From the NCBI GenBank assembly GCA_937860055.1, contig CALMBO010000014.1, forward strand, positions 25,132 to 89,131: a stretch of 64,000 nt of DNA. Reading direction: 5' to 3'. Source of the DNA: an uncultured Verrucomicrobiota bacterium (lineage in GTDB: Bacteria; Verrucomicrobiota; Kiritimatiellia; CAIQIC01; Lenti-01). Below the pieces are notes generated by a model. It ran no database searches. It was not told the DNA's origin and was given only the letters and a program-made list of their open reading frames with translations. How positions within the stretch are numbered: position 1 is the first letter of the stretch; each line of letters begins with the position of its first letter. The position numbers and the translations under genes are program-made. Positions 2,380 through 27,151 of the stretch are shown here, piece after piece.

Positions 2380-2919
2380 TTATGGGAACAGCGGTGGGGT
2401 GCCGTAGCTATCCTGCTGCCGGTTCAAACCGTAGCCATCATCGGCAGGCAAATCGGGCCGCTTGAGCAGTAGGGTAGAAAGTTCATCAGCCCGCTCGTTC
2501 TCTGGATGGCCTGCGTGACCCTTGACCCAGACAAATTCAACCTGGTGCTTGTCGCAGGCTGTCAGGAGCCGTTTCCATAGATCCGCGTTAAGCGCTTTCA
2601 CCTTCTTGGTCCGCCACCATCCCTTTCCCTCCCAACGGCGAACCCAACCCAATGACATCGCATCGACCAGATACTTGGAGTCGCTGTGGAGTCGGACGCG
2701 ACAGGGTACCTTCAGGGCCTCAAGCCCGGCGATGGCGGCAAACAGTTCCATCCGGTTGTTCGTCGTCAGGCGGAAGCCGCCATGCAGTTCCTTCCGAACA
2801 TCGCCGTGAATCAGGATGGCTCCATAGCCTCCAGCCCCCGGATTGGGTTCGCAGGCACCGTCGGTGTAGATCTCTACTGTTCCTGGAGCTTCATAACCTT
2901 TGGAATTATCGCGGTTCAT
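2380..2919 (-). CDS. rnhA: ribonuclease HI (RNase H type 1)
   Basis: Carries the conserved RNase HI blocks: EIYTDGAC..NPGx[25 protein letters not shown], and [21 protein letters not shown]. Start overlaps the upstream stop as ATGA. Confidence 0.85.
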
Positions 2920-5494: not shown

Positions 5495-6400
5495 TTAGTT
5501 CTCCTCTTGATTAAGACCCGTCTGCGGAACCTCGACGACGCTCGGCGGTTCTCCTGGCGTCCCGACATATTGCGCCTTGACGGAATCCCATTCGCCCATA
5601 CTGCGGTCGATACAGAGCCGACATTCCATACAGCGGATAGGCTTGCATTTGCCATTTCCCAGCGCGGGGCTCCCATTCTTGTTTTGCGCTATATAGATTT
5701 TGCTCTCATATGGACATACCAGAGCGCCGCCCAACCGTTCCAGAGTGCCGTTGTGAGGCATTCGTAGATTTCTGAAGACTAGATCAACGCCAGGGGGCGG
5801 AATGTCATCGTCAGTTTCGGCGAGGTAGGTGATCAGGCCGTTGCCAATTGGATTCGGCATCCCATATTTGGCCACCATGTCGCTGTCCGTCGAAAGGTTG
5901 ACCCTGACCATATTGTGTTTCCCAGCCAATTCCTCCAAGGTGGTTCGGAACGGCTCGTTCCGCCATGCTCGGGTGTAGATGAAGTAGTTGAGATTCGTCG
6001 TATCTTCGGTCGCCGAGACGATCTCTTCCCATTTGTTTAGGTATTCGACAGAGTAGAACTCTCCTTTTTCGTGCAAGGCCACGGACACCCGTTCGTCTGG
6101 ATGGTTCTCTGTGAACTGGACAATCTCGGTTGTGATTGTCTCGATGAATTCAGGCTTCGTTGTGAGGTCGTAATTCTCAGCGTATCGCTCATGGTGGAAA
6201 AGAAACTGCCCCGTCGAGGCATAGCAATATTGGCGGCATATTATCGAAGCAAACGGACACCTGTTGTTGGGCATCCCAATCGACCATGCCAGTACATTGC
6301 ATCCCTTCTTGCTTACGGTGTTGGATAGCCAACCTCTCCTGACCGTTCTCCTGACCGCTGGGCTTTCGCCCGCCATATTATCATTCGCTTGTATCTTCAT
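5495..6400 (-). CDS. hypothetical protein with Cys-rich C-terminus (301 aa)
   Basis: First gene of the minus-strand operon. Cys clusters CPFASIICRQYCYAS and CKPIRCMECRLC suggest metal binding. No family assignment. Confidence 0.55.
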   Translation of the reverse strand: MKIQANDNMAGESPAVRRTVRRGWLSNTVSKKGCNVLAWSIGMPNNRCPFASIICRQYCYASTGQFLFHHERYAENYDLTTKPEFIETITTEIVQFTENHPDERVSVALHEKGEFYSVEYLNKWEEIVSATEDTTNLNYFIYTRAWRNEPFRTTLEELAGKHNMVRVNLSTDSDMVAKYGMPNPIGNGLITYLAETDDDIPPPGVDLVFRNLRMPHNGTLERLGGALVCPYESKIYIAQNKNGSPALGNGKCKPIRCMECRLCIDRSMGEWDSVKAQYVGTPGEPPSVVEVPQTGLNQEEN

Positions 6401-6647
6401 TCTGATTCTCCTTTTGGATTATGAGAATCTTTATACATCGAAAAATGGCCGCCCTTAAAAAATGCGTAAAATAGTTATGCGGATGCGCGGGAAACAAAGA
6501 ATTCCCATGAAAACCCCAATAATTCTGCCGATCTGCCCCCTTCAGTATTTGTGAAATATCCCCCAAGAAATATTTTCGCTGGAAGGACAGGATAAATATT
6601 TGTGAGCACGGAATAACCAGTCATCCAACAAATAGGAGGACTGGAAA
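6401..6647. promoter_or_regulatory. AT-rich divergent intergenic region between the minus-strand cargo operon and the plus-strand RHH/primase operon
   Basis: A 247-bp non-coding AT-rich stretch lies between divergent first genes. An AGGAGG Shine-Dalgarno sequence sits just before the ATG at 6648. Confidence 0.4.
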
Positions 6648-6950: not shown

Positions 6951-8684
6951 ATGGAACAAATATCAACCGACTACTCTGCCAAACTAAACGCGGACGCAAA
7001 TATGCTGAAGGAGTTCTTCAGCATGCTCTTTGACCCCGATGAATCCGTATTGATCGTCCCGGGGCTGAATACAGAGAGATTCAAGGCTCTCTGTGCAAAT
7101 CTCGAAGGCTGGCCAAAGGAGATTGGGGGAAGGGAAACCACCTACTTCAGCAAGAAACTAGGCCGCATCCAACCTCGCCGTTATCTCAATCCATTTTCCC
7201 GTTCCCCGACCTCCGCCTCGACCCGGAACCTCGTAGCCCTCCACGAAATAAACCGGCAGGGATACGACATCTATTTCGCCATCAATCCTATGTCCTGCCG
7301 CCGCAGATGTCAGAAGACGGTCACAATGGCGAAACACGTTCTAGTTGAATCGGACACCAGCGATATCGACGCCCAACTTCGCTTTCTGAAGGAATACGAA
7401 GCCAACATCATCTCGGCCGTCCAGTCCGGTGGCAAGTCCATCCACTGCCTTGTTCGCATAGAGCCTTCACGATTGCATCCAGGGGCTGTCGGATGGAGGG
7501 AGGCCTATAGACTTCCCAAAGGCGAGACCAAGGCTCCGTGGGCCGAATACAGGCAAATTGGGGACTACTGGATTGCTGAGGCTCATAAACATGGAATGGA
7601 AATCGACACCGCGGCGGCCCATGACCACTCAAGGGTATCGAGGGTTCCGGGGTTCCTGCATGGCAAAACAGGCCGGAGGGCTGAAGTTGTCAAAATGAAC
7701 CCTATGGCCTCCTGGGACTGGAGGGGATCTGTGAAATCTTCGATGCTTGTGAGGTCGTCGATATTGTCGATATCACCGAATCAAGATGATGATGATTCAT
7801 TTTCAATATTAAATCCGAAAACCGAGTCTTTTTGTGAACTATTGGGGACTTTTGGGGACTTGAAGGAGACTAGGGAGAATAGAGACCCCGCCACGACTAA
7901 TGTTGTGCGCATAATCGGCCCGTATAGCCAGTGCCAACATCATGGAACTAGTTTTCTGGATGTATTGGACGACTTCGGGCGCCTGCGAGAGAGCGGGCTG
8001 CCCGGCCGACATACAAGGCGAAGTATGCATCGAACGCTCTTCGAGGCGGCAAGGGTCTATCGGTGGTCGATTCTTCAGATGGCCAGAGAATGGAGGCGAA
8101 TAATCAAAAGAAATCCGAAAGCAACCGTTGAGTCCGTTAAAAGCGCGGGGAGAGACATGTTGCGGGCGTGGAAAGCAACAGATGGAGTTGGGATCTACCT
8201 GCCCGATGTGACCAAATTGCCAGATCTTGACGATGCTAAGCGGGCGGTGTTGCAGACCCGGCTGGTCGGAATGGGCTGCAATGAGCCAAGGAAAGCCGCC
8301 AGAATCATCGAGCGGGTCATCCTGCCTCTTATCAAGAGCCTGCCGCGCCAATGTCGACAGGGGACTGTAGGCATCAAATCCAGAGCGCTTCGAGAGGCCG
8401 CTCATATATGGGGCCATTCGAGGGATTACAGGCACTTGTGGGAATGGATGCAGAAGGTCGGAATTGTCACCTGCATGAACAGCGATTACGTGCCGGAGAG
8501 TAGAACCCGGCAGTATGGCGTTAACATTCTTCTGGTCATATGGCTCTGCGGCTTCCGCACGGAGGAACTGGTCTGGAACACGGTAGCCAGTAACATATGG
8601 CCAGAACTTGCCCGCATGCGCGTGATCAACGATGGTGCGGTGGACTTTGGGGCTACAGAGTCTGAATTGCATTCAACCGGTTAG
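6951..8684 (+). CDS. primase-polymerase (archaeo-eukaryotic primase superfamily, RepB'-like/PrimPol-like) with C-terminal extension; no helicase motifs
   Basis: N-terminal AEP motifs are present: YDIYFAINP, the acidic motif HVLVESDTSD, and SGGKSIHCLV (sGxG.H). There is no Walker A motif anywhere in the 577 aa. Confidence 0.65.
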   Translation: MEQISTDYSAKLNADANMLKEFFSMLFDPDESVLIVPGLNTERFKALCANLEGWPKEIGGRETTYFSKKLGRIQPRRYLNPFSRSPTSASTRNLVALHEINRQGYDIYFAINPMSCRRRCQKTVTMAKHVLVESDTSDIDAQLRFLKEYEANIISAVQSGGKSIHCLVRIEPSRLHPGAVGWREAYRLPKGETKAPWAEYRQIGDYWIAEAHKHGMEIDTAAAHDHSRVSRVPGFLHGKTGRRAEVVKMNPMASWDWRGSVKSSMLVRSSILSISPNQDDDDSFSILNPKTESFCELLGTFGDLKETRENRDPATTNVVRIIGPYSQCQHHGTSFLDVLDDFGRLRESGLPGRHTRRSMHRTLFEAARVYRWSILQMAREWRRIIKRNPKATVESVKSAGRDMLRAWKATDGVGIYLPDVTKLPDLDDAKRAVLQTRLVGMGCNEPRKAARIIERVILPLIKSLPRQCRQGTVGIKSRALREAAHIWGHSRDYRHLWEWMQKVGIVTCMNSDYVPESRTRQYGVNILLVIWLCGFRTEELVWNTVASNIWPELARMRVINDGAVDFGATESELHSTG

Positions 8685-9950: not shown

Positions 9951-10670
9951 GACGGAAGCCTGTTGGTAGATATTCTGGCCAAGGCCTATCGAAAGGCCAA
10001 GAAGAATACGGACGGATCAAATATCCAAAAAGATCTCTCCGCATTTTTTATATCCTATGGAATATTGCCCATTGCACCATTGGGAAGGCCATTCTTAGGC
10101 GAGAACATTAGATTGAATCGGAAAACTGGAATACCGAGTCATAATTATGGAGAAAGCGACCATATTTGGCTGAAAATAGTTTGGAACAAGCTGTTGGCAT
10201 TTGAGATATTTGCTATGGCGGAATTCTCATTGCCTCATCCGATAATGATGCCGGTCCTGCCGCTATCATTGCCAACGACTAAAACAGGCAATAATGATCT
10301 TCGAGAGAATGTCGAGGTAACGCCAACCTCATTGCCTGTGTACATCAACATCCTACAGTCTCCCGAGGTGTTGGCGAACTACATTACTGCTTTTGCGGAG
10401 CAAGGAAGAGAGTCTCGCCTTTTGCAAATGCCAAAACAAGAGTCGGACTATAGAAGCGTTAAGACCGACGAGAGCAAATACGAGCGGTATCTTGATGCCC
10501 TTGATCTGGATTTGAAGTGCCAAGAAGGAGTACCATACGGCGATAAGTATGAATATTTTCAACGATACAACGACTTCCATAATCCAACTGGCGACGCCAT
10601 CATCACGTTTTACAAGGATTCAAGAAGATGTGCCCGGTTGTACCGTGATAAATACCGGCTAATTGTCTGA
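9660..10670 (+). CDS. hypothetical protein (up to 336 aa; alternative start at 9804)
   Basis: Long ORF co-directional with the plus-strand operon. It overlaps the 5' end of the minus-strand ORF at 8901-9950. No recognised domain. Confidence 0.35.
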   Translation: MRSRLFGFHRNSGFLFVHMYNLECTQSNVNPERSPPVISKTKPSRHDLMIRVYADILRGIHYRHEFARRDPVVRNKCEGIIDALGSNHESFSAFEAQDGSLLVDILAKAYRKAKKNTDGSNIQKDLSAFFISYGILPIAPLGRPFLGENIRLNRKTGIPSHNYGESDHIWLKIVWNKLLAFEIFAMAEFSLPHPIMMPVLPLSLPTTKTGNNDLRENVEVTPTSLPVYINILQSPEVLANYITAFAEQGRESRLLQMPKQESDYRSVKTDESKYERYLDALDLDLKCQEGVPYGDKYEYFQRYNDFHNPTGDAIITFYKDSRRCARLYRDKYRLIV

Positions 10671-10827
10671 TCGCCCGCATTTACTCCTGACTCTTTAAGT
10701 TTCCTGTTTCTCGCCTTGATTGTCCTCTCAGGGTGAAGCCAGACGTGTGCCCAATCTCCCCCTAGTGCCGGTCGCTTATGTAATATAGAGACATTAAATT
10801 AGCCACAGTTAACTAAAGGACTGTGGC

Positions 10828-11613
10828 ATGAAAAAGACATCCAAGACGGCGCCGGCAAAAATGGCCGGCAAGACATCTGAGCCCACCGGGCAGACGGCGA
10901 CCACGAAGCGCGCCCGCCAAGTAAAACCTTCTGGATGTCTGGAAGGTTCAGCCTCAAGCGGTCTGCCGAAGAAGAATGCCGACGACATCATCGCCATGCA
11001 TGGCGAAGAGGCCTACAAGTACTACTTCGACAGCGAGGACGGGAAGTATTCTATCGGAGCGGAAGCTGGCGGGGCTACAAAAGAATTGCGGGGGACCGAC
11101 GCGCGCGTACCCAATGAACTCTATGTCTGTCGGGCTCTCTCCCAGTACCTCCAGAAGAAAGGGATAAGGGATGTCTCGTCCTCGACGATCTATGACTGGA
11201 TGCGTTCCGATGAAACCCGCAAGGCGCTTGGCGGTAAAGGCAAGGCTCCCAAAATCTCTATCAGCTTCTATGTAGCCGTCAGCCGGGATGACATCCCAAT
11301 TGAGAAGCGGCGGGAACATCTCGAATATGCGATTAAACATTCACTGACAGTCGGGGGGCTCAAGGATCGTATCTTTGGGAGAGAGGGGGTAAGTGGGATC
11401 GGCGATGGCGATGCTGCAGGCGAGGGGGCCATATCGGACATCGCAACAGCCGAGCGGATTATCAGCGAATCCCGGTCGTTATTGTTGGGCCATTATGAAG
11501 AGTTTCGCTCAATCGATCCCGCGCAGAACAGTAGTTCCATCGCTCTGCTGGAAAACCTAGCAATCTATATCTGGCAACTGCGGGACGATATTGCCAACGG
11601 CGGACCTAAGTAG
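10828..11613 (+). CDS. hypothetical protein (261 aa)
   Basis: ORF preceded by an inverted repeat that embeds the RBS. No recognised domain. Confidence 0.55.
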   Translation: MKKTSKTAPAKMAGKTSEPTGQTATTKRARQVKPSGCLEGSASSGLPKKNADDIIAMHGEEAYKYYFDSEDGKYSIGAEAGGATKELRGTDARVPNELYVCRALSQYLQKKGIRDVSSSTIYDWMRSDETRKALGGKGKAPKISISFYVAVSRDDIPIEKRREHLEYAIKHSLTVGGLKDRIFGREGVSGIGDGDAAGEGAISDIATAERIISESRSLLLGHYEEFRSIDPAQNSSSIALLENLAIYIWQLRDDIANGGPK

Positions 11614-11624
11614 GGGGATGACGA

Positions 11625-12797
11625 ATGAAATCGCTGAAACACATTCCCGATGTATCGACGAAGAACATGGGCAACAAGGATAAGACCGGCGTCCAAGCCG
11701 ACGGCACCAAGAAATCTCTGCTGAAGGCCATTTCTGAAGCCATCGGCGATTGTCCCGAAGGAGTTATCGACCTGACCGCCGGGAGTCTTGCGGTATCCCT
11801 GCATCTGAATTCCATTTGCGGGAAGCGGGTAATCGCCAACGATTGTCGTAAGGCGTCATATTACACGGGGCTGGCCTTTTTCAACAGCGATGGGGTGGTT
11901 ATCGGGGCCAAAGATATCGAACTGCTCCAACATGGTGGTCTTGTCGCCGGTCCCGTAGTCAAACTGCTCGAGTCAGTCTTGGGCAAAAATAACGCAACGC
12001 AATTTGACCGGATCATCCGCAACCTGGGTTGTCTTGCCGGTGCCGGTGCCGAACAGAAGCGTATCATTGCGATAGCCGGCATCCTCCAGGCTATCTCCGG
12101 AGCCCTCAACGTCTACCATCTTCGGGGGGCCAACAGGGACTGCGGTGCCGCCGGGAACGAACATCTCAGGGATGCCGATCTTATCTCCGAATGGCGGGAA
12201 TGGGTCCTTGTCAAGCATCCGGAGATCGCCAAGGGGATTACCCTCGGTTGCGAAATCTACAACGAAGACGCCGTCTCGCTTATGCAGGATAAGAAGCCTT
12301 CAGCATCCTGCCTATATTTAGATCTTCCATACGGAATAGGAAATTATATTGCCGACCTTAAGGTCTTCGAGGACATCTGCAATCTTTGCGAGGGGAAACG
12401 GCCAGGCGACCCGGTATTCGGGCGCCCCGCTCAACCTAAACATCGGTTCGACAACCGCATCGACTACATTGGCAACCTGACGAAGCTGCTTCTGGGGTCC
12501 GACCATATCCCGCGCTGGGTGATTTCCATTAATACAAGTTCGCCCGTTAAGCCCGAAGAGATTGTCAGGATTGTCCGGTCTTTTGGCAGGAAATGCGAAA
12601 TCCGGCGTTACAAGGTCTCCCTGGCAACCAACCGCAAGAGGGCAACTCCCCTCGAAAATTATGAATGCTTGATCATATGTACGCCAGACGCCGAGCTTGA
12701 AAAACAAATTTCAGGCATTCGCAGTCGTTTCGAATCAATGGCCAGTTCCCGCCGTCTATTGTCTCCGAGTACGGGGAACAAACAGGAGCGCAAATGA
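11625..12797 (+). CDS. N6-adenine DNA methyltransferase, Dam-like (alpha-class) candidate
   Basis: An N-terminal AdoMet-binding-like block (VIDLTAGSLAVSLHLN) resembles Dam FxGxG. A downstream DPPY-type motif reads CLYLDLPYGIG. The motif order (FxGxG then DPPY) fits the D12/Dam class. Confidence 0.55.
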   Translation: MKSLKHIPDVSTKNMGNKDKTGVQADGTKKSLLKAISEAIGDCPEGVIDLTAGSLAVSLHLNSICGKRVIANDCRKASYYTGLAFFNSDGVVIGAKDIELLQHGGLVAGPVVKLLESVLGKNNATQFDRIIRNLGCLAGAGAEQKRIIAIAGILQAISGALNVYHLRGANRDCGAAGNEHLRDADLISEWREWVLVKHPEIAKGITLGCEIYNEDAVSLMQDKKPSASCLYLDLPYGIGNYIADLKVFEDICNLCEGKRPGDPVFGRPAQPKHRFDNRIDYIGNLTKLLLGSDHIPRWVISINTSSPVKPEEIVRIVRSFGRKCEIRRYKVSLATNRKRATPLENYECLIICTPDAELEKQISGIRSRFESMASSRRLLSPSTGNKQERK

Positions 12798-13281: not shown

Positions 13282-14109
13282 ATGAAATCACATAATCAGA
13301 TCAAAGAATCGAAAGTACACCCCCGTCCCGCCAGCGGAACTGGCGAATGGGCAGAGGAAAACATCAACATTCAGACCGGCTGCAACCGGGACTGCAAATA
13401 TTGCTATGCCAAATGCATGGCGGTTCGGTTCCGCCGCGCGACACCAGAATCGTGGCCCGACCAGGTTGTTGATGAGGCCAAGGTAAAAAAGCATTACGGT
13501 AAGTCGAAAGGCCGGGTTATGTTTCCCTCGACCCACGACATCAGCCCCGAAAACATCCAAGACTGTCTGCAGGTCATGGATTGTTTGCTGAAGGCCGGTA
13601 ACGACATCCTCGTTGTCAGCAAGCCCGAACTAGCCTGCATCAAGAGCATCTGCGCCAGATTCATAAACAATAAGCGACAGATACTCTTCAGGTTCACCAT
13701 CGGTTCAGCGGACGATGCAATTCTCACAAAATGGGAGCCGAACGCATCCTCATTCGGCGAGAGGCTAAAATGTCTCAAGCACGCTTACGCATTAGGCTAC
13801 GGTACTTCAGTCTCCTGCGAACCGATGCTGGATGCCCAGGTTGGCAAAGTCATCAAAGCCGTATCGCCATTCGTCACCGACTCGATCTGGTTGGGTCGGA
13901 TCAATCGGCTCCGCCAGACAATCGCGATCAATTGTCCTGGCGACGAAAGCATCAAAGCGCTGGCGAACCAATTACTGGCAGAGCAGACCGACGACTGGAT
14001 TCTGGCTCTGTATAATAACTTCAAGAACAACCCAATTATTCGATTCAAGGACTCCATCAAGAAAGTGGTGGGTCTTATAAGGCCGACAATAAAAGGGTTG
14101 GACATATGA
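13282..14109 (+). CDS. radical SAM protein, SplB/COG1533-like (DNA repair photolyase-type)
   Basis: CxxxCxxC motif embedded as GCNRDCKYCYAKC, matching the GC...C.YCYA pattern of COG1533. Size is about 275 aa. Stop overlaps the next start. Confidence 0.6.
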   Translation: MKSHNQIKESKVHPRPASGTGEWAEENINIQTGCNRDCKYCYAKCMAVRFRRATPESWPDQVVDEAKVKKHYGKSKGRVMFPSTHDISPENIQDCLQVMDCLLKAGNDILVVSKPELACIKSICARFINNKRQILFRFTIGSADDAILTKWEPNASSFGERLKCLKHAYALGYGTSVSCEPMLDAQVGKVIKAVSPFVTDSIWLGRINRLRQTIAINCPGDESIKALANQLLAEQTDDWILALYNNFKNNPIIRFKDSIKKVVGLIRPTIKGLDI

Positions 14110-14957
14110 ATACTATGGACGGGAGAGATTCCCGGCAGGAGACAAGAAGCAAAACCTCTGACAACTCAGGGGATGACCAAAAGACAGAAAGAGAAGCCAT
14201 GAAAAAGAAAAATGCGAAAAAGATGAATAACTCAATGAACATCAAGAAACAGGAGGATGGTATGGGCAAGCAAGATGCGAATGGTGAACGCTTGGGTGAT
14301 TGGTTGAAGCGGGAAGAAGAATGTAAGCAGGCGTGGTATGCATTCATTGCAACCCACGAAATACCCGATGAAATTCCGACAAGACCAGACATGGTTTACG
14401 CCAACGAAGGATGGAAAGGCTGGCAAGATTGGCTGGTGTCGCCTGATTCGAAAGGAAATATGGCCAGAACGGTCAAGGAACCTAATCTGCCAACTCCCGA
14501 CGAGTGCTTCATCTCCGTAGTATTCGACGAATGGCTGAAGGACAGCCATTGCCTGGACTCCATGGAGGTGTGGGATGCCGACCCGAAAAGGCCGTTCCGT
14601 TTCAATGCAATCATAGAATTCACCACCCATCAGGGGCTTTCAAATGGCAGTGACCTTGGCTTTCTGATGGTTCAAGAGGCAATGAGTCGCATTATGGAAA
14701 TTGGCCATTCTGCCGGACTCTGTACCTGCTGCGTGGTTCAAGCGGTCGGACAGGTCAGTCTGAAGAAAAGCGACGGGAATGCCTTTGCGAAGGAACGCCT
14801 GGTTGACAACGGGATGGACGAGAAAGATGCCGAGGTGTTTCTCCGCAGCGTCTCGTTGTATCTCAATGTCATTAGCGACGAATGGCCGTTTAAGTATGTC
14901 GGCCCGAGCGAGACATCTGATGACAAGGCAATGGATTCTGATGGAGGCCATCCATGA
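14106..14957 (+). CDS. hypothetical protein, paralogue A of an unrecognised family (basic disordered N-terminus)
   Basis: Shares the blocks EWLKDSHCLD..WDADPKRPF.FN and EWPF.YVGPS..DD.A with the ORF at 15417-16127. Confidence 0.6.
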   Translation: MNTMDGRDSRQETRSKTSDNSGDDQKTEREAMKKKNAKKMNNSMNIKKQEDGMGKQDANGERLGDWLKREEECKQAWYAFIATHEIPDEIPTRPDMVYANEGWKGWQDWLVSPDSKGNMARTVKEPNLPTPDECFISVVFDEWLKDSHCLDSMEVWDADPKRPFRFNAIIEFTTHQGLSNGSDLGFLMVQEAMSRIMEIGHSAGLCTCCVVQAVGQVSLKKSDGNAFAKERLVDNGMDEKDAEVFLRSVSLYLNVISDEWPFKYVGPSETSDDKAMDSDGGHP

Positions 14958-15416: not shown

Positions 15417-16127
15417 ATGAGGAGAAAAATGAAAAACAAAAAGAGCGCCAACATGGACTCGGGTGCAAAGACCGACATCAAAGCGATAAGAAAACCTAAA
15501 GACATTCATGCTGGAGTAGGAGAACTGGAAGAAAGACTTGAGCGTCTTCTTGGCTTGTTCCGGAATGTTCCAACGACATCTATTGGTTGCGGCGAAGAAA
15601 GCGCATTTCAAGCCGTCCAGAATGTGATTGATAGTCTAAAATATGCGCTTTCAACCTGTGAGGTTGTTGCAAATCAATGCTTCGTATCTGAGTTAATCAA
15701 CGAATGGCTGAAGGATAGCCATTGCCTCGATAACCAGGATGCGTGGGACGCTGATCCGAAAAGACCATTCCCATTCAATGAGGTTATGGCCTTCATTGAC
15801 AAACATGGGCCATTCGATAGCAAGGATCTCAGAACCTGGATGACCGGAGTGGCGCTCAGGCGCATGGTCGTCATTGGGCGCTCGGTGGATATCAGTAGAG
15901 CCCTTGGGCTGATTCGGGTGGTCGGACAAGTTAGTCATGGGAAAAGCCGGGAGATCTCCAAGGCGATGGATTATCTTGGCGAAGCTGGACTATGTGCCAG
16001 TGAGGCAGATGAGTACCTGCGTTGCGTTTCATTGTACCTCAAAGTCTGCCGTGGCGAGTGGCCGTTTGACTATGTCGGCCCGAGCCAGTCGGCAGACGAC
16101 GAGGCCAACTCAAGGTCTTCCCCATGA
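15417..16127 (+). CDS. hypothetical protein, paralogue B of the same unrecognised family
   Basis: Carries the same conserved blocks as 14106-14957 (EWLKDSHCLDNQDAWDADPKRPFPFN ... EWPFDYVGPSQSADDEA). It has a basic N-terminus. Confidence 0.6.
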   Translation: MRRKMKNKKSANMDSGAKTDIKAIRKPKDIHAGVGELEERLERLLGLFRNVPTTSIGCGEESAFQAVQNVIDSLKYALSTCEVVANQCFVSELINEWLKDSHCLDNQDAWDADPKRPFPFNEVMAFIDKHGPFDSKDLRTWMTGVALRRMVVIGRSVDISRALGLIRVVGQVSHGKSREISKAMDYLGEAGLCASEADEYLRCVSLYLKVCRGEWPFDYVGPSQSADDEANSRSSP

Positions 16128-16223
16128 ACCAACCCCTCCAGCCCAGCATTTCCCAGGCCATGTGCCGAGATATACAAAAATCTGTCGCTGTATAATGAGT
16201 CATCATCAAAAGGAGTAATTAAT

Positions 16224-16757
16224 ATGTCGAATGTATGTAGAAATCAAATACTAGTCGTAGGTCCTACCCCGGGCCTCGCCCGGTTCAAGCGGGAAGCCTG
16301 TAACTTCAAGTCCTACGACGATCCGCACGTCGATCTGCGCATGGACAAACTTATTCCACTGTCAGTCCTCTCAGCCAGAGAGCGCGAATGTTTTGGTTGC
16401 TACGGAGATGTCGGTGGTACCCGACTCAGGTTTAGAGATTCAAAGTCCGGCTTTGGCTGTCTGGACTTTAAATTCGACTCTTCGGATTGGGCACCAATTG
16501 AGTTCCTACAGAAGACATCTGAACTTTATCCAGATCTGGAATTTCATCTCATTCATACTGTAGGAGATTCTTGCCGTGCAGGAAAAGTCACATATTTGGC
16601 CGGGAAGCCAATAAATGAAGTCCGGGTGGCGTACATCGATCCCGATGACTGTCTCGATGAATACCTAGATCGACCCGGCCTGGTCCCATGGATGGAAGGC
16701 CTGTTCAAAAATCCAGATTCTCCTATGCCGAATCACAATGAGGGCGACCCTGAATGA
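16224..16757 (+). CDS. hypothetical protein, member 1 of a second paralogue pair
   Basis: Strong RBS (AAAGGAG). An upstream TGTATAAT extended -10 lies at 16189-16196. The N-terminal N.C.N.L.V.G block and the C-terminal YP.L.F.LI...G block are shared with 16920-17441. Confidence 0.55.
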   Translation: MSNVCRNQILVVGPTPGLARFKREACNFKSYDDPHVDLRMDKLIPLSVLSARERECFGCYGDVGGTRLRFRDSKSGFGCLDFKFDSSDWAPIEFLQKTSELYPDLEFHLIHTVGDSCRAGKVTYLAGKPINEVRVAYIDPDDCLDEYLDRPGLVPWMEGLFKNPDSPMPNHNEGDPE

Positions 16758-16816
16758 CCGTCCGCCTCCAGCATGATATGGCCATTGGGTTCGCCACCAG
16801 AAAGGCGTCCGCCTCG

Positions 16817-16850
16817 CGGCCACCTGACCCATACCCCCGCACCCTCCAGC
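16817..16850. repeat. about 33-bp intergenic motif GGCCACCTGACCCAT..CCGCACCCTCCAGCC (copy 1)
   Basis: Near-identical copy at 17448-17480. A shorter CCCCTCCAGCCC version occurs at about 16134-16145. Each copy lies just 3' of a cargo gene. Confidence 0.6.
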
Positions 16851-16919
16851 CAATCGGCCTCCAGAAGGCCCGAACCTATACGCGGTATAATCGAATAAGA
16901 AAACAAAAGGAGAAATATT

Positions 16920-17441
16920 ATGCCTAACTACTGCGAAAACCACTTAACCATCACAGGCCTTCGCAAGGACCTTGAAGTCTTTCGCGACAGCGCTGCTTTA
17001 CTAGAAGCGTCTTCCGAGGGTGATGAGGCTTCCCCCTTTTGCTTCAGCAAACTAGTGCCGGTCCCGGAACCCCTATTCGATATCAAGGATTATGAATACG
17101 ATTGGAAGGAGGAGCATTGGGGATGCCATCGGTCTGCAGAAGACGTCGATTGTTTCCTGTTCTGCGACGAAAATGGAAGAGGGCAGCTTGTCTATGAGTT
17201 CCTTACTCCCCGGTCGTGTCCTGTTAAGTTCATCGAGGGGATTTCGGCTAGATATCCGAACCTGACATTCTCCTTGATTGCCTTTATAGGGGAAGTCCAG
17301 TCTGCCGCGCTATATATCGCCCGTCGCGGCATCATATTTACCGAAATTGTGGGACATTACGAAGCGTCTCTGATGGATGATGCCTTTCAGGAAGGGCCGT
17401 ACACCTCATGGCGATTTATTCCGCCCCAGGAAGGCATCTAG
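16920..17441 (+). CDS. hypothetical protein, member 2 of the second paralogue pair
   Basis: RBS AAAGGAGAAA. An upstream GGTATAAT -10 lies at 16884-16891. Sequence blocks are shared with 16224-16757. Confidence 0.55.
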   Translation: MPNYCENHLTITGLRKDLEVFRDSAALLEASSEGDEASPFCFSKLVPVPEPLFDIKDYEYDWKEEHWGCHRSAEDVDCFLFCDENGRGQLVYEFLTPRSCPVKFIEGISARYPNLTFSLIAFIGEVQSAALYIARRGIIFTEIVGHYEASLMDDAFQEGPYTSWRFIPPQEGI

Positions 17442-17447
17442 CTGAAG

Positions 17448-17480
17448 GCCACCTGACCCATGCTCCGCACCCTCCAGCCC
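17448..17480. repeat. about 33-bp intergenic motif (copy 2)
   Basis: Matches 16817-16850 with a few mismatches and one indel. It starts 7 nt after the stop of the upstream gene. Confidence 0.6.
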
Positions 17481-17551
17481 CAAGCCCCCAGACGGACCTT
17501 TTCGAAAATCCACAACAGCGTTTAGGTGGTTCCGGAGGCTGAAAAAGGCCG

Positions 17552-19225
17552 TTGGCGACGGCTGCAGAAATGGACATGAAGAAAGGCAAAAAGAAGCGAG
17601 GCATTTGGCAGGACTTCCGCCCCTGTGACCCTGAGGGGAAGGCGTCGGCCGTCTACATTCGCATCTCCCGCGACGACGCCGGGGCGAAGAATCCCAAGGA
17701 GGCCAAGGAGTCCGCCCGGGTCCAGCAGTCGAAGTGCGAGGCCTACGCCAAGGAAAGGGGCTGGGCCGTCCGGCTCTATCAGGACATCAACCTTTCGGGC
17801 TTCGACGACGAGGGGCGTCCCGATTTCCAGCGGTTGCTTGCCGACATAAACGCAGGCCTCATCCACTCGGTCATCGTACTTGAGCCCAAGCGTCTAGCCC
17901 GCGACAACTCGATCATGGACGCGGTCGTCAAGGAATACCTCTATCCGAACGGGATCAAGCTCCATGGAGTAATGAGCCCGATCGACATCACGAACGATGA
18001 CGGGCTCTTCATGCTCGGCATCGAAATGGCCTTTTCCCGTAAGGCGATTTCGGAGCAGCGCAAGAAGTCCATGGCCTCCATCGACAGCCAACTGAAAGAA
18101 CACACCTTCATCCCCAGGCCATGCTACGGCTACCGGCGAGACGAGAAGGGGCGGATCCATGTGGTGGAGTCCGAAAAAGCGGTGATCCTGGAGATGTACC
18201 GGATGTGTCTCAAGGGCGACTCGATGAACGAGATCAGCGAATATTTCAACCGAGCCGGCGTCCCGGGCAAGCGGGGGGCTAGGTGGTGGACCCACCGGCA
18301 GATCAAGATCGTCCTGACCAACCCGGCCTACGTGGGCAAGATCCGCTACCGGGGCGTGCATGAGACCCGGTTGATCCCCAAGATGGTGACCAAGGAGACG
18401 CAGGACTCGGCGGCGGAGATGCTGGCCATCAGGTCCCACAAGCGGGCGCCATCCAAGCGGCACCTCTTGAGCGGGCTGGTGACCTGTTCATATTGCGCTG
18501 AAAAGGCGAGCAGGGGCGAACGGGCCTATCCGGCGATGGTCCTGAACATCCAGACGCAGGGCCCCAAGGGAGAGAAGAAGAAGTACGCCTATTTTTTCTG
18601 CCAGTCCCAGAACCGGGGTGTGTTCCATTGCGAGTCGCCCAGGGTTCCGGAAGCCGCCTTGGACGCCATTGTCGAAGGCACCATCGTCCCTTATGTCCTG
18701 GACAGGTATTCGAGGCAGATCGGCGCCGACTCGCACCAGGAGACCCTCAAGAGGCTGGAGGCGGCGAGGGGGCGGGTCCGTCTCGTCGAGTCACGCAACA
18801 AGGAGATCGAGGATTCGTTCGCCTCCGGGGAGATGGGGAAACTGGAATACCTTCGTCTGAGGGACAAGAACCAGGCGAAGTCGTCGGTTGCGAGAGAGGA
18901 GATATCCGTTTTGCTCCAGATGGCCGAGTCGGAAGACCCGAACAAGGTTCAAGAGGTCGTGGATGTCTTGCAAAGATGGCAGGAGATGCCCATGGAGAAA
19001 CGGCGGGACGCCATCCGCACCTTCATCGAGTCAATCGAGGTTTCCGCCGAGTGGGTGACCTTCCATATCAGGCCCGTCGGGGGCGACAAGTGGTCGTTCA
19101 ATGTCCGACTGGAAACCGTGCGGAGATACCAGGAGAAGCCCATAGGGGATCTGAAGAATCATATGGAATGGACGCTGGGGCAGGCGGGGTATGCTAACCA
19201 GGAACCTTGTCCCAATGTCGGTTGA
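17552..19225 (+). CDS. large serine recombinase (integrase)
   Basis: N-terminal resolvase-type catalytic region with the serine motif AVYIRISRDD, followed by a long recombinase domain and a C-terminal Cys-rich zinc ribbon (CSYCAEK...FFCQSQNRGVFHCESP). Length is 557 aa. It lies at the junction with host DNA. Alternative start at 17573. Confidence 0.85.
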   Translation: MATAAEMDMKKGKKKRGIWQDFRPCDPEGKASAVYIRISRDDAGAKNPKEAKESARVQQSKCEAYAKERGWAVRLYQDINLSGFDDEGRPDFQRLLADINAGLIHSVIVLEPKRLARDNSIMDAVVKEYLYPNGIKLHGVMSPIDITNDDGLFMLGIEMAFSRKAISEQRKKSMASIDSQLKEHTFIPRPCYGYRRDEKGRIHVVESEKAVILEMYRMCLKGDSMNEISEYFNRAGVPGKRGARWWTHRQIKIVLTNPAYVGKIRYRGVHETRLIPKMVTKETQDSAAEMLAIRSHKRAPSKRHLLSGLVTCSYCAEKASRGERAYPAMVLNIQTQGPKGEKKKYAYFFCQSQNRGVFHCESPRVPEAALDAIVEGTIVPYVLDRYSRQIGADSHQETLKRLEAARGRVRLVESRNKEIEDSFASGEMGKLEYLRLRDKNQAKSSVAREEISVLLQMAESEDPNKVQEVVDVLQRWQEMPMEKRRDAIRTFIESIEVSAEWVTFHIRPVGGDKWSFNVRLETVRRYQEKPIGDLKNHMEWTLGQAGYANQEPCPNVG

Positions 19226-19317
19226 CAGACCCCCTTCTGGGGCTTAATCTGCAATCACTCTATATAAGGTATAGACCACTCTAACCCCAATATGGCATCT
19301 AACACATAGAATTACCA

Positions 19318-20313
19318 ATGGGTTACAGTTTACACCACAGGGGATATTATTCCGACGTGAAGGGGCAGGAGTTCGCGCGTCGCGCGATCGAAGTGGCGGT
19401 GGCCGGTGGCCACAATATCCTCCTGGTGGGGCCGCCGGGCACGGGGAAATCCATGCTGGCCAAGCGGGTGCCGACGATCCTGCCGCCGCTGGGGCTGGAA
19501 GAGGCGCTGGAGACGACGAAGATCCACAGCATCGCGGGGGTGCTGCCGGCGCACCAGGCGGTGGTGGGGGGTCGGCCGTTCCGGTCGCCGCACCACACGA
19601 TTTCCGATGCGGGGCTGCTGGGCGGCGGCACGCATCCGCTGCCCGGCGAAGTCAGCCTGGCGCACAACGGGGTGCTGTTCCTTGACGAGCTGCCGGAGTT
19701 CCACCGCAACGTGCTGGAGGTGATGCGCCAGCCGCTGGAGGATGGCGTGGTGTCCATTGCGCGCGCGGCGGCTTCGGTGACGTTTCCGTGCCGGTTCATG
19801 CTGGTGGCGGCGATGAATCCGTGTCCGTGCGGGCATTTCGGGGATGCGAAGCGGGAATGCCGGTGCACGCCGGTCCAGATGCAGCGCTACCGAAACCGGA
19901 TTTCGGGGCCGCTGCTGGACCGCATCGACATCCACGTCGAGGTGCCGGCGATGGAATACCAGCAGCTGGCGTCGCTGGAGAAGGGGGAGTCCTCTTCGCA
20001 GATCCGGGAGCGGGTGGTGGCGTCGCGGGCGGTTCAGCGGGAGCGGTTCGCCAAGGGCCGGGGGGCGCATGCGATCCACTGCAACGCGGGGATGCGGGCC
20101 AAGGACGTGCACAAGCACTGCATGCTGGACGATGCGGCGCAAAGCCTGCTCAAGGCCGCGATGGCCGACCTGCACCTGAGCGCCCGCGCCTATGACCGGA
20201 TTTTGAAGGTAGCCCGGACGATCGCGGACCTGGCGGGGGAGGGCGACATTGCCGCCGACCATGTCGCCGAGGCCATCCAGTACCGCTCCCTGGACCGGCA
20301 ATACTGGACCTGA
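19318..20313 (+). pseudogene. comM: comM (Mg-chelatase-like AAA+ competence ATPase), 3' fragment; 5' part displaced by element insertion
   Basis: The 331-aa ORF aligns to the ComM/YifB C-terminal two-thirds only, beginning at [29 protein letters not shown] (Walker A). The N-terminal domain of about 170-190 aa is absent. The first codons are AT-rich junction DNA, and the GC switch occurs at about 19350. Confidence 0.75.
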
Positions 20314-20399
20314 GGCCGCACAGGCCGACAATCCTTGACAACAAGGGCCGCATTCGCTCCAATTCCGCGTTGGATATCCGATTACACAAGGAGGCCCCA

Positions 20400-21803
20400 A
20401 TGGCATTCAAGGTCAACATCGTCGGCATCGTGGCATGGGTTTTGGTGGTGGTTCTGGCCATCGCGGCGGGAGTGCTGGGATTTCTGGGCCAGCAACAGGC
20501 GGGCAAGGCGGCGGGATTGCGCGATGCGCTGGTGCAGGTGGCTGCGACGGCGGGGGTTCAGGAGTTGAAGCCGGCGGAAGCGGCGCCCGAAGCCGCTCCG
20601 GCGGAAGGAGAGGCGGCCGCCGCCCCGGCGGCGGCGCAGCCGCTGACGGCGGATGCGCTGAAGGACACGGCGGTGCTGGCAACCGCCGTGCAGCAATTGC
20701 AGACGGCCATCCAGGTGACGCAGCAGGAACTGGCGACCACGAAGGATTCCCTGACGGCTTCGCAGATGGAAGCTTCCAACGCCAAGACCGAATCGGCGGC
20801 CTTGTCCCAGAAAGTACAGAAACAGACGGCGGCGGCGGAGGCGGCAACCAAGGACCTGGCGGCGAAGGGCGAAGAAGTCGCGGCCGCCAAGGCGGCGGCG
20901 GAGAAGGCGGGCCAGGAATTGCAGGAAGCCAAGCAGTCCGCCGAAAAGCAGAAGGCTGAGATGGAAGCTTCCCTCGAGGACTTGAAGGCGCAGATGGCGG
21001 AGGAGACCGCCCGCCTCCAGGCGGAGCTGGAAGCGGCCCGGCAGGAGGCGCAAGCCACCACGGAACAGGCGGCGGCACCCGAAGCCGTCGAAGCCGCGGG
21101 AGAGGAAGGGGATGCCGTGGCCATGGAAGACGTGGTCATGGAAGAGGCCGTTGCCGCAGAGCCGGAGATGGCTGCCGAAGAGCCGGTGGCGGAGCCGGAA
21201 GCGGTAGAGGAAGAGAAGCCGGGCCGGGTGATCGGCCAGTCGCAGATGTTTTCGCTCATCCGTTATTCGGAGGAGGACCAGGGCTTGTTCCTCCGCTTGC
21301 TGGACGGGCAGACGTTGACCTATCGGGAGGTTCCTCGGGATGTCTATGACCAGCTGGTCGGCGCGGAGGACAAGCTGGACATGATCTACCGCTTCAAGAT
21401 CCAGGGCGCATTCAAGAGCCTGCCTCCGGACAGCACGGTGGTGCGCAAGTATTGGAAGGGACAGCGCTACAAGCCGGCGAAGAGCGATGTGCGCGTGATC
21501 GAGCCGGAGGCCCCGCTGGTCATCGTGGACGAGCAGCCTGCCGCCGAAGAGGCCGCTCCCGCCGAAGCCGTCGTGGCCGAGGCTCCCGCGGCGGAAGAAG
21601 CGGCTCCTGCCGCAGAGGCGGCCCCCGCAGAAGCTCCTGCCGAGACCCAGGCCCCCGTTGCGGAAGAGGCTGCTGCACCTGCTGCAGAGGAGGCTCCGGC
21701 GGCCGAGGCTCCTGTCGCAGAGGAGATCCCCGCCGAGACGTCTGCGCCGGAGGGGGAAGCCGCCCCGGCCCCTGCGGAGGAGGCGGTTCCGGCTTCGAAC
21801 TGA
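20400..21803 (+). CDS. membrane-anchored Ala/Glu-rich coiled-coil protein with KTSC-like domain
   Basis: AAGGAGG RBS before the ATG at 20400. N-terminal TM helix (IVGIVAWVLVVVLAIAAGVLGFL). Long A/E/K/Q-rich coiled-coil and PAEA repeats. A KTSC-like block reads FSLIRYSEEDQGLFLRLLDGQTLTYREVPRDVYDQL. Confidence 0.7.
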   Translation: MAFKVNIVGIVAWVLVVVLAIAAGVLGFLGQQQAGKAAGLRDALVQVAATAGVQELKPAEAAPEAAPAEGEAAAAPAAAQPLTADALKDTAVLATAVQQLQTAIQVTQQELATTKDSLTASQMEASNAKTESAALSQKVQKQTAAAEAATKDLAAKGEEVAAAKAAAEKAGQELQEAKQSAEKQKAEMEASLEDLKAQMAEETARLQAELEAARQEAQATTEQAAAPEAVEAAGEEGDAVAMEDVVMEEAVAAEPEMAAEEPVAEPEAVEEEKPGRVIGQSQMFSLIRYSEEDQGLFLRLLDGQTLTYREVPRDVYDQLVGAEDKLDMIYRFKIQGAFKSLPPDSTVVRKYWKGQRYKPAKSDVRVIEPEAPLVIVDEQPAAEEAAPAEAVVAEAPAAEEAAPAAEAAPAEAPAETQAPVAEEAAAPAAEEAPAAEAPVAEEIPAETSAPEGEAAPAPAEEAVPASN

Positions 21804-25672: not shown

Positions 25673-27151
25673 ATGAAAATCATTTCCAAAATCGACAAGA
25701 AGGTCCTCCAGCGGGCCGTCCAGCGCGCCAAGGAGCGCGGCGTCATCCTGCCGACCTTCGCCCAGCAGAAGGACCCCCGGAAGGTTCCGGCGAAGATCCA
25801 GGAGAAGCTCAAGAAGATCAAGCTGCAGGACGTCAATCCGCTGAACCTGTTCCGCATCACGTGGAAGAACGATCCCAAGACGGGCGGTTTCGGCGAGGGC
25901 AACTGGCTGGAGTTCCCGAAGGAGATCACGGGCGTGGACGCGCGGATCGTGGGCCTGATGGGGCGGTATTTCCCGACGGGCGCGCACAAGGTCGGCGCGG
26001 CCTACGGCTGCCTGGTGCCCCGCCTGGTGAGCGGCAACTTCGATCCGACGACGCAGAAGGCCGTTTGGCCCTCCACCGGCAACTACTGCCGCGGCGGCGC
26101 CTACGACTGCGCCCTGCTGGGCTGCCCGGCCATCGCCATCCTGCCGGAAGGCATGAGCCAGGAGCGCTTCCAGTGGCTCAAGAGCATCAAGACCGACGAG
26201 ATCATCGCGACGCCCGGCACCGAGTCGAACGTGAAGGAGATCTACGACATGTGCTGGAAGCTGCGCAAGGAGCGCGGCGACAAGATCGTGATCTTCAACC
26301 AGTTCGAGGAGTTCGGCAACTCGATCTGGCACTACAACATGACCGGCGGGATCATCGAGGAAATCTACGAGAACAACTTCAAGACCGCCAACAGCCGCCT
26401 GTCCGGCTACATCAGCGCAACGGGTTCCGCCGGCACGATCGCGGCGGGCGATTTCCTGCGCACGAAGCACCCGGGCATCCGCGTGGTGGCCACCGAGGCC
26501 CAGCAGTGCCCGACTCTCTACCAGTACGGTTTCGGCGCACACCGCATCGAAGGCATCGGCGACAAGCACATTCCGTGGATCCACAACGTGCGCAACACGG
26601 ATGCCGTCAGCGCCGTGGACGACGAGCAAGTCATGCAGCTCCTGCGCCTCTTCAACGAGAAGGCCGGCCAGGAATACCTGAAGAAGCAGGGCGTCAAGGC
26701 CGACGTGCTTTCGAAGCTGCCGGCGCTGGGCATCTCGGGCATCTGCAACCTCGTCAGCGCCATCTGGACGGCGCGCTACTTCGAGATGGACGGCCGGGAC
26801 GTGATCTTCCTGCCGATGACGGATTCGATGGACCTGTACGCCTCGCGCGTGGCCGAAATGGCCGAGCAGCACGGCCCCTACAACGCGGATCTGGCCTCCC
26901 GCCACTACGGCCGTTTCCTCGAGGGCTGCAACCCCACGACGTTCCGCGAACTGAACTACTTCGACCGGAAGGCGATCCACAACTTCAAGTATTTCACCTG
27001 GGTCGAGCAGCAGGGCAAGGACAGCGAAGAGCTGCGCCAGCTGTGGGACGAGGATTTCTGGAAGAGCGTCTTCGATCCCAAGCAGGTCGCCGAATGGGAT
27101 CAGCTCATCAACGAGTTCAACGCCGCCACCGGCCTGTTGAAATCCCTGTAA
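25673..27151 (+). CDS. PLP-dependent enzyme, tryptophan-synthase-beta/cysteine-synthase fold (492 aa, N-terminal extension)
   Basis: Fold-type II PLP enzyme features: a Lys-containing block (PTGAHKVGAAY) and a glycine-rich loop (SATGSAGTIAAG). Paired with a YgeY-type hydrolase. Confidence 0.65.
   Translation: MKIISKIDKKVLQRAVQRAKERGVILPTFAQQKDPRKVPAKIQEKLKKIKLQDVNPLNLFRITWKNDPKTGGFGEGNWLEFPKEITGVDARIVGLMGRYFPTGAHKVGAAYGCLVPRLVSGNFDPTTQKAVWPSTGNYCRGGAYDCALLGCPAIAILPEGMSQERFQWLKSIKTDEIIATPGTESNVKEIYDMCWKLRKERGDKIVIFNQFEEFGNSIWHYNMTGGIIEEIYENNFKTANSRLSGYISATGSAGTIAAGDFLRTKHPGIRVVATEAQQCPTLYQYGFGAHRIEGIGDKHIPWIHNVRNTDAVSAVDDEQVMQLLRLFNEKAGQEYLKKQGVKADVLSKLPALGISGICNLVSAIWTARYFEMDGRDVIFLPMTDSMDLYASRVAEMAEQHGPYNADLASRHYGRFLEGCNPTTFRELNYFDRKAIHNFKYFTWVEQQGKDSEELRQLWDEDFWKSVFDPKQVAEWDQLINEFNAATGLLKSL

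Follow-up and report, generated by a model that had tools for sequence, protein, structure and literature searches.

Tandem YubB/Api92-like gene cassettes with a conserved C-rich boundary motif beside the integrase gene of a phage-like element

The DNA considered here, called the window throughout, is a stretch of 64,000 nucleotides (nt) of contig CALMBO010000014.1 (assembly GCA_937860055.1, positions 25,132 to 89,131 of the forward strand) from an uncultured bacterium of the Kiritimatiellia. Its first ~19.3 kb appear to belong to a phage-like integrative element. Directly ahead of the gene for the element's presumed integrase stand two small genes in tandem, open reading frames (ORFs) A and B, each with its own promoter-like box and ribosome-binding site (RBS) in front and each followed by a copy of the same C-rich sequence of about 33 bp, the boundary motif. 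A gene together with these flanks is referred to below as a cassette.

Two cassettes and their punctuation

The array consists of the following features.

16121–16144, plus strand: short, degenerate motif copy CCCATGAACCAACCCCTCCAGCCC, 79% identical to 17457–17480 and overlapping the stop codon of the preceding gene
16185–16196, plus strand: promoter-like 12-mer TCGCTGTATAAT of cassette A, a predicted extended -10 element (TGnTATAAT); its -10 box, TGTATAAT, lies at 16189–16196
16210–16215, plus strand: Shine-Dalgarno (SD) sequence AAGGAG of ORF A, 8 nt ahead of the ATG
16224–16757, plus strand: ORF A, 177 aa, putative A-type YubB/Api92-like protein (DUF1281_C superfamily) whose homologue P0014 passes PF18406
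16758–16817, plus strand: conserved non-coding tail of A-type cassettes, which starts with the degenerate motif-like CCGTCCGCCTCCAGC and continues as the frame-broken fossil of a B-type gene 3' end
16818–16870, plus strand: motif copy 1, GGCCACCTGACCCATACCCCCGCACCCTCCAGCC, then a second CCAG block in a small GGCCT-N5-AGGCC hairpin
16880–16891, plus strand: promoter-like 12-mer ACGCGGTATAAT of cassette B, mutated with respect to TCGCTGTATAAT, which precedes the B-type genes of relatives; its -10 box, GGTATAAT, lies at 16884–16891
16907–16913, plus strand: SD sequence AAGGAGA of ORF B
16920–17441, plus strand: ORF B, 173 aa, putative B-type YubB/Api92-like protein; DUF1281_C match of 13.4 bits, under the cut-off
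17447–17495, plus strand: motif copy 2, GGCCACCTGACCCATGCTCCGCACCCTCCAGCC, with a CCCCAGA block, between cassette B and the integrase module
17552–19225, plus strand: large serine recombinase, 557 aa, with Resolvase, Recombinase and Zn_ribbon_recom domains (alternative ATG starts at 17570 or 17576); the integration module at the right end of the element

An earlier reading made from the letters alone (the sequence-only reading) had listed both ORFs and their flanking features; all are present, and its coordinates were right to within 1 nt. Its spacing of the promoters needs correction: it put the -10 boxes about 28 nt before the RBS, but they end 27–28 nt ahead of the ATG, and the RBS sits in between. 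The heptamer GTATAAT occurs three times in the 64 kb against 0.82 expected, always on the plus strand and upstream of a gene start (14010, 16190 and 16885). The proposal that each gene has its own consensus-like promoter and strong RBS is borne out at the level of sequence. Among relatives, by which I mean contigs encoding homologues of ORF A or ORF B, the exact 12-mer TCGCTGTATAAT is found upstream of ~20 cassette genes at 10 loci, and a comparison of flanks gives for nearly every array gene the order (ca)TTCGCTGTATAAT, ~20 nt, AAGGAGAA, then ATG. Further promoter-like boxes lie elsewhere in the element: TCGATGTATAAA with AAAAGGAGAA at 6430–6441 on the minus strand, upstream of the leftward GP88 gene (5495–6400), and GCTCTGTATAAT at 14005–16, inside the 3' end of a radical-SAM gene and ~90 nt before the gene for a 283-aa protein. 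The box seems to serve as a general early promoter of the element. A scan of IMG/VR with the combined promoter-plus-RBS pattern matched only unrelated phages with ordinary sigma-70 promoters.

The proteins encoded by ORF A and ORF B align with 23% identity across 147 residues (BLASTP, E = 2e-8), so the earlier suggestion that the two genes are paralogues holds; the pair is an old one that diverged anciently. Direct sequence searches with either protein gave nothing useful in PDB sequences, NCBIfam, PADLOC or PHROGs, and against PF18406 (DUF1281_C) ORF B scores 13.4 bits, short of the cut-off of 22.8, whereas ORF A has no match. The A-type homologue P0014, which shares 55% identity with ORF A, reaches 30.9 bits against the same profile, and a joint profile of both proteins and their homologues matches 7175 cluster representatives, of which eight in a sample of ten pass the PF18406 cut-off. 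AlphaFold (AF2) models of ORF B and ORF A have predicted local distance difference test (pLDDT) scores of 81.6 and 76.3. In the PDB, the top and sole significant match of the ORF B model is Api92 (2ijr; E = 3.3e-4, probability 1.0, TMq 0.59), and in BFVD the same model matches proteins named for a 'YubB ferredoxin-like domain' (E = 1.5e-12, TMq 0.72). The ORF A model matches these YubB-domain proteins as well (E = 1.5e-9), and the YubB-domain matches of both models come from tailed phages and giant viruses.

On this combined profile and model evidence, ORF A and ORF B appear to belong to the YubB/Api92 (DUF1281_C) ferredoxin-fold superfamily as new and divergent members. Their likeness to YubB and Api92 (DUF1281, DUF1281_C, PDB 2ijr) is one of fold and of profile-level sequence kinship, and like them they are small proteins (~130–260 aa in the superfamily, which is found in phages, giant viruses, plasmids and genomic islands). 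They differ in falling under the Pfam threshold and in forming a rare subfamily of about a dozen close homologues: among 5.8 billion sequences, only 10 were found for ORF B and 4 for ORF A. The sequence-only reading had guessed, with very low confidence, at ferredoxin-like proteins of plasmid leading regions; at the level of the family it guessed well, given the DUF1281_C match of P0014, the Api92 fold match and the viral YubB matches. A tblastn search of plasmids with a DUF1281_C representative returned only hypothetical proteins, literature searches found no functional data for DUF1281, Api92 or YubB, and protein-pattern scans of IMG/VR did not find relatives.

A further ORF of 57 aa (16754–16927) reaches from the stop codon of ORF A, which it overlaps (ATGA), across motif copy 1 and the B promoter into the start of ORF B, and gene callers annotate it or its equivalent in L002, L005, L104 and one of the contigs that carry the homologue P0008. 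Comparison of the window with the relative L010 (1 synonymous and 6 non-synonymous differences) and a length that varies from 20 to 58 codons argue against its being a real gene.

The same motif of ~33 bp does follow each of the two genes, as the earlier reading had noticed, with a short version at 16121–16144. The cores of the long copies (16818–16851 and 17447–17479; 33 nt, with 0 chance matches expected) differ by 3 substitutions and a 1-nt insertion, and their similarity extends 5' into the last codons of ORF B (48 nt, 73% identity, 16790–16837 against 17419–17466). A scan of both strands of the 64-kb window allowing up to 4 errors found no further copies. Of the genes in the integrase-proximal array of nine related metagenomic elements, nearly all have a ...CATGCCCCGCACCCTCCAGCC... 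copy behind them and TCGCTGTATAAT with AAGGAGA ahead of them. Fourteen copies from these 9 elements align to the consensus CT(G/A)A.GGCCAACTGACC CATG CCCCGCA CCCTCCAGCCC...GCCCCCAGA, or in shorter form ...GGCCAACTGACC CATGCCCCGCACCCTCCAGCC..CCCCAGA, with an invariant core, TCCAGC. All 14 share the strand of the genes and either overlap a stop codon or come straight after one; in the B-type genes of L006 and L007 the TGA within GGCCAACTGACC is itself the stop codon. The motif is strand-specific, unstructured, C-rich and G-poor.

Two observations bear on how these copies arose. Both window copies carry a derived GGCCACCTGA where other elements have GGCCAACTGA, a sign of concerted evolution that suggests gene conversion within the element. 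Moreover, the tail after every A-type gene (16758–16817 in the window) resembles the last codons of B-type genes (W-R-F-x-P-x-Q-x-G...) with frame breaks, which marks it as a fossil carried along with the junction. The idea of duplicated cassettes thus stands as regards the paralogy of the genes but not as regards the motif as the tail of a local duplication, because the motif also stands behind unrelated genes, as in L104 and L012 with their identical 28-nt junction GGCCAGTTAAGGACGGATTGACCTTATG, and because copy 1 is fused to the fossil of a B-type 3' end. The motif is family-wide punctuation and not the relic of one local duplication.

Homology junctions among related elements

L001 to L005 represent the same element as the window; the other relatives differ in which cassettes they carry and in what follows them. 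The tandem order of A-type gene, motif, promoter and B-type gene recurs in L100, L101 and the two P0008-carrying contigs, which upholds the expectation that the cassette arrangement would be conserved in related elements. Only the A-type gene is present in L010 and only the B-type gene in L006, L007, L012 and L102, whereas L103 has three YubB-like genes consecutively. In L006 and L007 the B-type gene lies directly upstream of a serine recombinase 80% identical to that of the window. In L010, L012 and L102 the place of the serine recombinase is taken by an HTH_17 (excisionase-like) gene. Behind it, L010 and L012 encode a protein of 391–406 aa with weak phage-integrase SAM-like matches (a tyrosine-integrase-like module); the L102 contig ends before the gene after HTH_17 can be assessed. 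The swapped integration modules lie at 10664–12172 in L010, 10526–12157 in L012 and 3417–3716 in L102, and L007 has an extra 164-aa resolvase-domain ORF (10593–11087) inserted right behind the motif. In L010 (10538–10664) an open frame runs in phase from the TGA stop of the A-type gene through the ATG of the motif (10616) into HTH_17, which is probably a coincidence.

When window positions 13.0–19.4 kb were compared with each relative by blastn, taking the ends of local alignments as approximate breakpoints, the blocks of homology began at 16177–16188 or 16864–16881, at the promoters, and ended at 16831–16870 or 17484–17497, at the motifs. L105 (93% identity) matches 16185–16835 and L104 matches 16188–16831, the two matches in effect beginning at the opening base of the 12-mer and stopping midway through motif copy 1. 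The homology with L010 (15397–16870) ends just past the same copy. At the B promoter, homology starts at 16878 in L006, 16872 in L012, 16864 in L102 and 16881 in L007; just past motif copy 2, it ends at 17491 in L102 and 17484 in L007. Genes and junctions also have different histories, as the discordance of their identities indicates: the 60-nt A-type tail is 97% identical between the window and L104, where the genes are ~80% identical, but 83% identical between the window and L105, where the genes are ~95% identical. Across the element family, conservation of the promoter block and the motif far exceeds that of the intervening genes, and it is at these two sequences that homology starts and stops.

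Shuffled cassettes and the role of the motif

I consider it probable that these are moron-like expression cassettes that are shuffled as modules, with the conserved sequences at promoter and boundary as the patches of homology, in a manner functionally similar to the promoter-early stem-loops (PeSLs) of T4-type phages (Arbiol et al., 2010, PMC2839356; Comeau et al., 2014, PMC4122927). Each cassette would comprise a near-consensus extended -10 promoter, a ~20-nt leader with a strong AAGGAGA RBS, one gene and a C-rich 3' motif, and recombination between promoter or motif patches would insert, delete or exchange such cassettes.

PeSLs and the array in the window are alike in several respects: both are short composite regulatory repeats in which the end signal of a unit lies beside a strong sigma-70-like promoter, both recur between small genes, mostly of unknown function, in a plastic region of the genome, and in both the breakpoints of insertions, deletions and replacements between related genomes fall at the repeats. 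The window promoter differs from that of a PeSL in being an extended -10 with no recognisable -35, and the carrier is a temperate, integrase-bearing element of the Planctomycetes-Verrucomicrobia-Chlamydiae (PVC) group rather than a lytic T4-like myovirus. Phage morons (reviewed in Cumby et al., 2012, PMC3594210) share with the cassettes a promoter and end signal of their own (predicted here), a phage-type genome and presence or absence among relatives. The cassettes adjoin the integrase, at the end of the prophage. They differ from morons in forming a tandem array with shared, conserved punctuation, and in place of the intrinsic terminator of classical morons, ORF A and ORF B have behind them only a C-rich stretch resembling those at which Rho loads. 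Because the cassettes lack defining features of both (stem-loop or intrinsic terminator, GC deviation, phage type), they are members of neither class. Integron cassettes, too, are single-gene units in one orientation beside a recombinase gene with a repeated 3' element, but their attC sites are imperfect inverted repeats that form hairpins and are used by a tyrosine integron integrase, whereas the window motif has neither inverted repeat nor structure and is independent of recombinase type; moreover, integron cassettes usually lack promoters, and each window cassette has a predicted one. The arrangement is a variant of known phage gene-shuffling and nothing categorically new.

As for the motif itself, its primary job may be to end or insulate each transcription unit by Rho-type termination on ribosome-free, C-rich RNA past the stop codon, a reading to which I give somewhat less than an even chance. 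Transcription from the strong cassette promoters would then stop at the motif before running on into the next cassette or the integrase module, and such insulation would explain how strong promoters come to lie directly upstream of an integrase gene. A Rho utilisation (rut) site is ~78 nt of C-rich, G-poor, unstructured and ribosome-free RNA (PMC6407284), and judged by that source and its RhoTermPredict criteria the motif regions qualify, with a C/G ratio not merely above 1 but of 2.6–2.7 over ~78 nt of unstructured sequence directly behind stop codons. The three 78-nt stretches with the highest C/G on the plus strand between 12 and 19.3 kb are the three motif regions (2.73, 2.69 and 2.60, the 99th percentile being 2.2); a ratio of at least 2.4 is reached at only 5% of random anchors, and the other plus-strand gene ends in the element have 0.6–1.9. 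Among relatives, 18 of 19 cassette gene ends lie at or above the 95th C/G percentile of their locus and 16 at or above the 97th. Small GC-rich hairpins downstream, at 16855–16869 and 17548–17562, are possible pause sites. A terminator scan found no hairpin with T-run after these genes, and an intrinsic terminator was rejected. Although rut sites are defined by composition, the window motif is a specific conserved sequence of 20–33 nt, so a sequence-specific factor may also be involved; mere hitch-hiking of a junction homogenised by recombination is possible as well.

Several alternatives were weighed against termination. One is that the motif is or was coding, as the start of a downstream gene (M-P-R-T-L-Q-P...) or as a small upstream ORF coupled to the preceding stop (TGAcccATG), so that the window copies would be fossil 5' ends of an HTH_17 (excisionase-like) gene, each left by a duplication that accompanied the insertion of a cassette before the integration module. 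The ATG is indeed retained in ~11 of the 14 aligned copies; the HTH_17 gene is called from the motif ATG in L012 and L102, and in L010 that ATG is in frame; a number of the differences among copies are third-position changes (CCC/CCT, CGC/CGT, ACC/ACT, CAG/CAA); ~50 nt 3' of copy 2 are homologous to the leader or N-terminal region of the HTH_17 genes in L012 and L010; and the copies degenerate progressively away from the integrase (17447, then 16818, then 16121). Yet 1-nt indels break the frame in several copies, at least in copy 1 of the window, L006 and L104, no SD sequence precedes the motif ATG, and the ORFs that start there in the window run for 21–23 codons with a downstream part that is not conserved. 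The N-terminal extension of HTH_17 is likewise poorly conserved, with large indels, conservation setting in only from ...ELRRNPP, where an internal Met is available, and the excess of non-synonymous differences from L010 in the frame of the 57-aa ORF, given above, tells against coding too. The motif is probably not coding, and I regard this alternative as rather unlikely.

The motif could also be a sequence-specific site for a DNA- or RNA-binding regulator of the element or the host, coordinating the cassettes or an integron-like capture of cassettes beside the integrase. Its strict orientation and its invariant TCCAGC, accompanied in ~6 of the 14 copies by a second CCAG block ~15 nt downstream, are more specific than a rut site needs, and insertions occur within ~20 nt downstream of it (the small resolvase-domain gene of L007, for example, or the B cassette relative to L010). 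A candidate binding protein was not identified, though, the motif has neither dyad symmetry nor hairpin and occurs regardless of the recombinase type of the element, and its distance to the next -10 box varies between 34 and 47 nt, so that it cannot be a phased activator site; overall a regulator site is unlikely. A narrower version, that TCCAGC marks a dedicated, factor-recognised cassette boundary capturing promoter-gene cassettes at a 'growth zone' before the integration module, I find quite improbable. It would amount to integron-like acquisition in a temperate phage-like element that needs neither hairpin attC nor a specific type of integrase; the decay of the motif away from the integrase and the nearby insertions in relatives are compatible with it but do not demonstrate it.

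Could the motif instead be a functionless leftover of tandem duplication or of recent gene conversion? The repeat does run into the fossil of a B-type 3' end, and each window copy resembles the other more than it does its positional orthologues. An old duplication, however, cannot leave a neutral flank ~90% identical between genes only 23% identical, and the motif persists across 9 elements with genes 45–75% identical, as well as behind unrelated genes. In two of three comparisons the identity of the tail (83–97% overall) also lies clearly above that of third codon positions (74–92%), the exception being the window against L105, with 83% for the tail and 92% for third positions. A neutral leftover is therefore very unlikely. 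The chance is slimmer still that the motif is an RNA-level insulator whose CCUCC pairs with the GGAG of the next RBS in read-through transcripts, such that only transcripts begun at the cassette's own promoter get translated. Pairing of motif CUCC with downstream GGAG appears in the minimum-free-energy and centroid structures of 4 of 6 read-through intergenic RNAs, but the helices are merely 4–6 bp long and close loops of ~60 nt, with z-scores (-0.57 to +2.2) that make them no stabler than shuffles, and in a G-poor RNA the SD sequence is nearly the sole pairing partner, so composition alone predicts the pairing. Further, the AGC of the invariant core is superfluous for such pairing, and there is no cassette RBS behind copy 2.

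The remaining candidates, a generic repeat of the host like the repetitive extragenic palindromic (REP) elements, a Chi-like hotspot or an attachment (att)-type site of the serine recombinase, are scarcely credible, even though the motif lies close to the recombinase gene. The E. coli Chi sequence is GCTGGTGG, and the reverse complement of the motif core, GCTGGAGG, is one base off it; a count of GCTGGAGG over the host part of the window (45 kb) gives 12 on the plus and 8 on the minus strand against 12.1 expected under a Markov model, so that it is neither enriched nor skewed, and a Chi-like hotspot was rejected for that part. A REP-like repeat, which the sequence-only reading had named as the finding that would overturn its own view, was rejected because the same 45 kb hold no copy of the motif. 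Elsewhere, a degenerate motif scan of 185,579 species genomes gave 86 matches, a chance level, one per stretch, mostly in unrelated high-GC genomes and none beside an A or B gene, and a scan of the viral contigs of IMG/VR gave a single match (L013), inside a high-GC coding region. That reading had also offered regulatory, RNA-structural and recombination roles for the motif. The structural role was rejected on fold z-scores of 0.04 and 0.65 and the lack of any Rfam match at E up to 1 between 12 and 20 kb, and a serine-recombinase site on the lack of dyad symmetry and the presence of the motif in L010, L012 and L102, which have other integration modules without serine recombinase; a regulatory role and one as a junction of homologous recombination are favoured.

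A number of points weigh against the picture of shuffled cassettes ended by Rho. The activity of the cassette promoters is read from sequence alone, with a sigma-70 consensus that may not be that of Kiritimatiellia, and terminator activity has been deduced in the same way from criteria that may not apply there either. The rut criterion is permissive, yielding ~24,000 predictions in the E. coli genome (PMC6407284), and it leaves unexplained why a specific sequence (TCCAGC, CATG) is conserved beyond composition. The stem-loop of PeSLs has no counterpart here save the 5-bp GGCCT/AGGCC hairpin at 16855–16869, found with one copy of an otherwise unstructured C-rich motif, and the deviant GC of classical morons is missing, the cassettes having 0.51 (16–17 kb) against 0.48–0.56 in neighbouring kilobases. 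The relatives are mostly short metagenomic contigs, and the breakpoints drawn from them are only approximate. Finally, the 19 kb of the element within the window show no structural genes of a phage, and what I call a prophage could instead be a satellite or another kind of integrative element.

The carrier element and what the array implies

The wider setting includes the following genes.

2380–2919, minus strand: RNase H gene (phage-type)
5495–6400, minus strand: GP88 gene (phage-type)
6951–8684: gene for a primase-like protein (phage-type)
11625–12797: D12-class methyltransferase gene (phage-type)
13282–14109: gene for a radical-SAM/DUF5131-like protein (phage-type; the DUF5131 match is weak)
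15417–16127, plus strand: upstream cassette gene, 236 aa, no family match; its stop codon overlaps the short motif copy
19318–20313, plus strand: 3' part of a host comM/Mg-chelatase-like gene, at the right border between element (~50% GC) and host DNA (66% GC)

GC content is ~0.50 from window position 1 to ~19.3 kb and 0.62–0.71 beyond, and a host enzyme encoded at 25673–27151 has as its best named matches, at 82–85% identity, proteins that their sources label as metagenome-assembled genomes of Kiritimatiellia or Spartobacteria. The step in GC, the recombinase, the phage-type genes and these matches together indicate that the array stands at the integrase end of a phage-like element, integrated in the DNA of an uncultured bacterium of the PVC group. 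Window positions 1 to ~19300 are probably the right part of that element, inserted in comM by the large serine recombinase, a judgement that I make jointly with the explanation of the array given above. The left end and the att sites lie outside the window. The right junction with comM falls at 19226–19330, and the remaining comM frame opens with an ATG at 19318, at the junction; the L007 element is also inserted in comM, and its 82% DNA identity with the window carries on across the junction.

Upstream of the two cassettes lies another pair of paralogues, the 236-aa protein (15417–16127) being 44% identical to the 283-aa protein (14106–14957) over the C-terminal ~145 residues. Neither has a match in Pfam, PHROGs, NCBIfam or PADLOC. 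Within this pair only the second gene has a motif copy, the short one, after it, and kin of the pair precede YubB-like cassettes in L010, L102 and L104. The radical-SAM gene before it has an 88% identical copy in L006, and its protein shows weak similarity to the PADLOC candidate defence models PDC-M41B and PDC-M30B and to prokaryotic viperin models, confined to the N-terminal CxxxCxxC region. On the host side, an ORF of 477 aa (20370–21803) directly 3' of comM is extremely rich in Ala, Glu and Pro, with low-complexity, coiled-coil-like repeats, and is followed by a DUF1844 gene; the same order is found in L001 and L007. The host part has a strong positive GC skew throughout, which fits a single replication arm, and no transfer RNA or transfer-messenger RNA genes were found in window positions 1–64000.

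If the interpretation offered here is true, modular shuffling at promoter and end-signal punctuation is not confined to lytic T4-type phages but would also occur in temperate elements of the barely studied Kiritimatiellota, with an unstructured C-rich boundary replacing the stem-loop. It would also single out a rare YubB/Api92 (DUF1281) subfamily as individually promoted and, to judge by their RBSs, apparently strongly translated accessory genes. Their position is one where prophages commonly have lysogenic-conversion or anti-defence genes. A functional test of the YubB/Api92 superfamily could take the cassette arrangement as a concrete point of departure, and the 12-mer promoter together with the boundary motif could be used as sequence tags for finding more cassettes in metagenomes.

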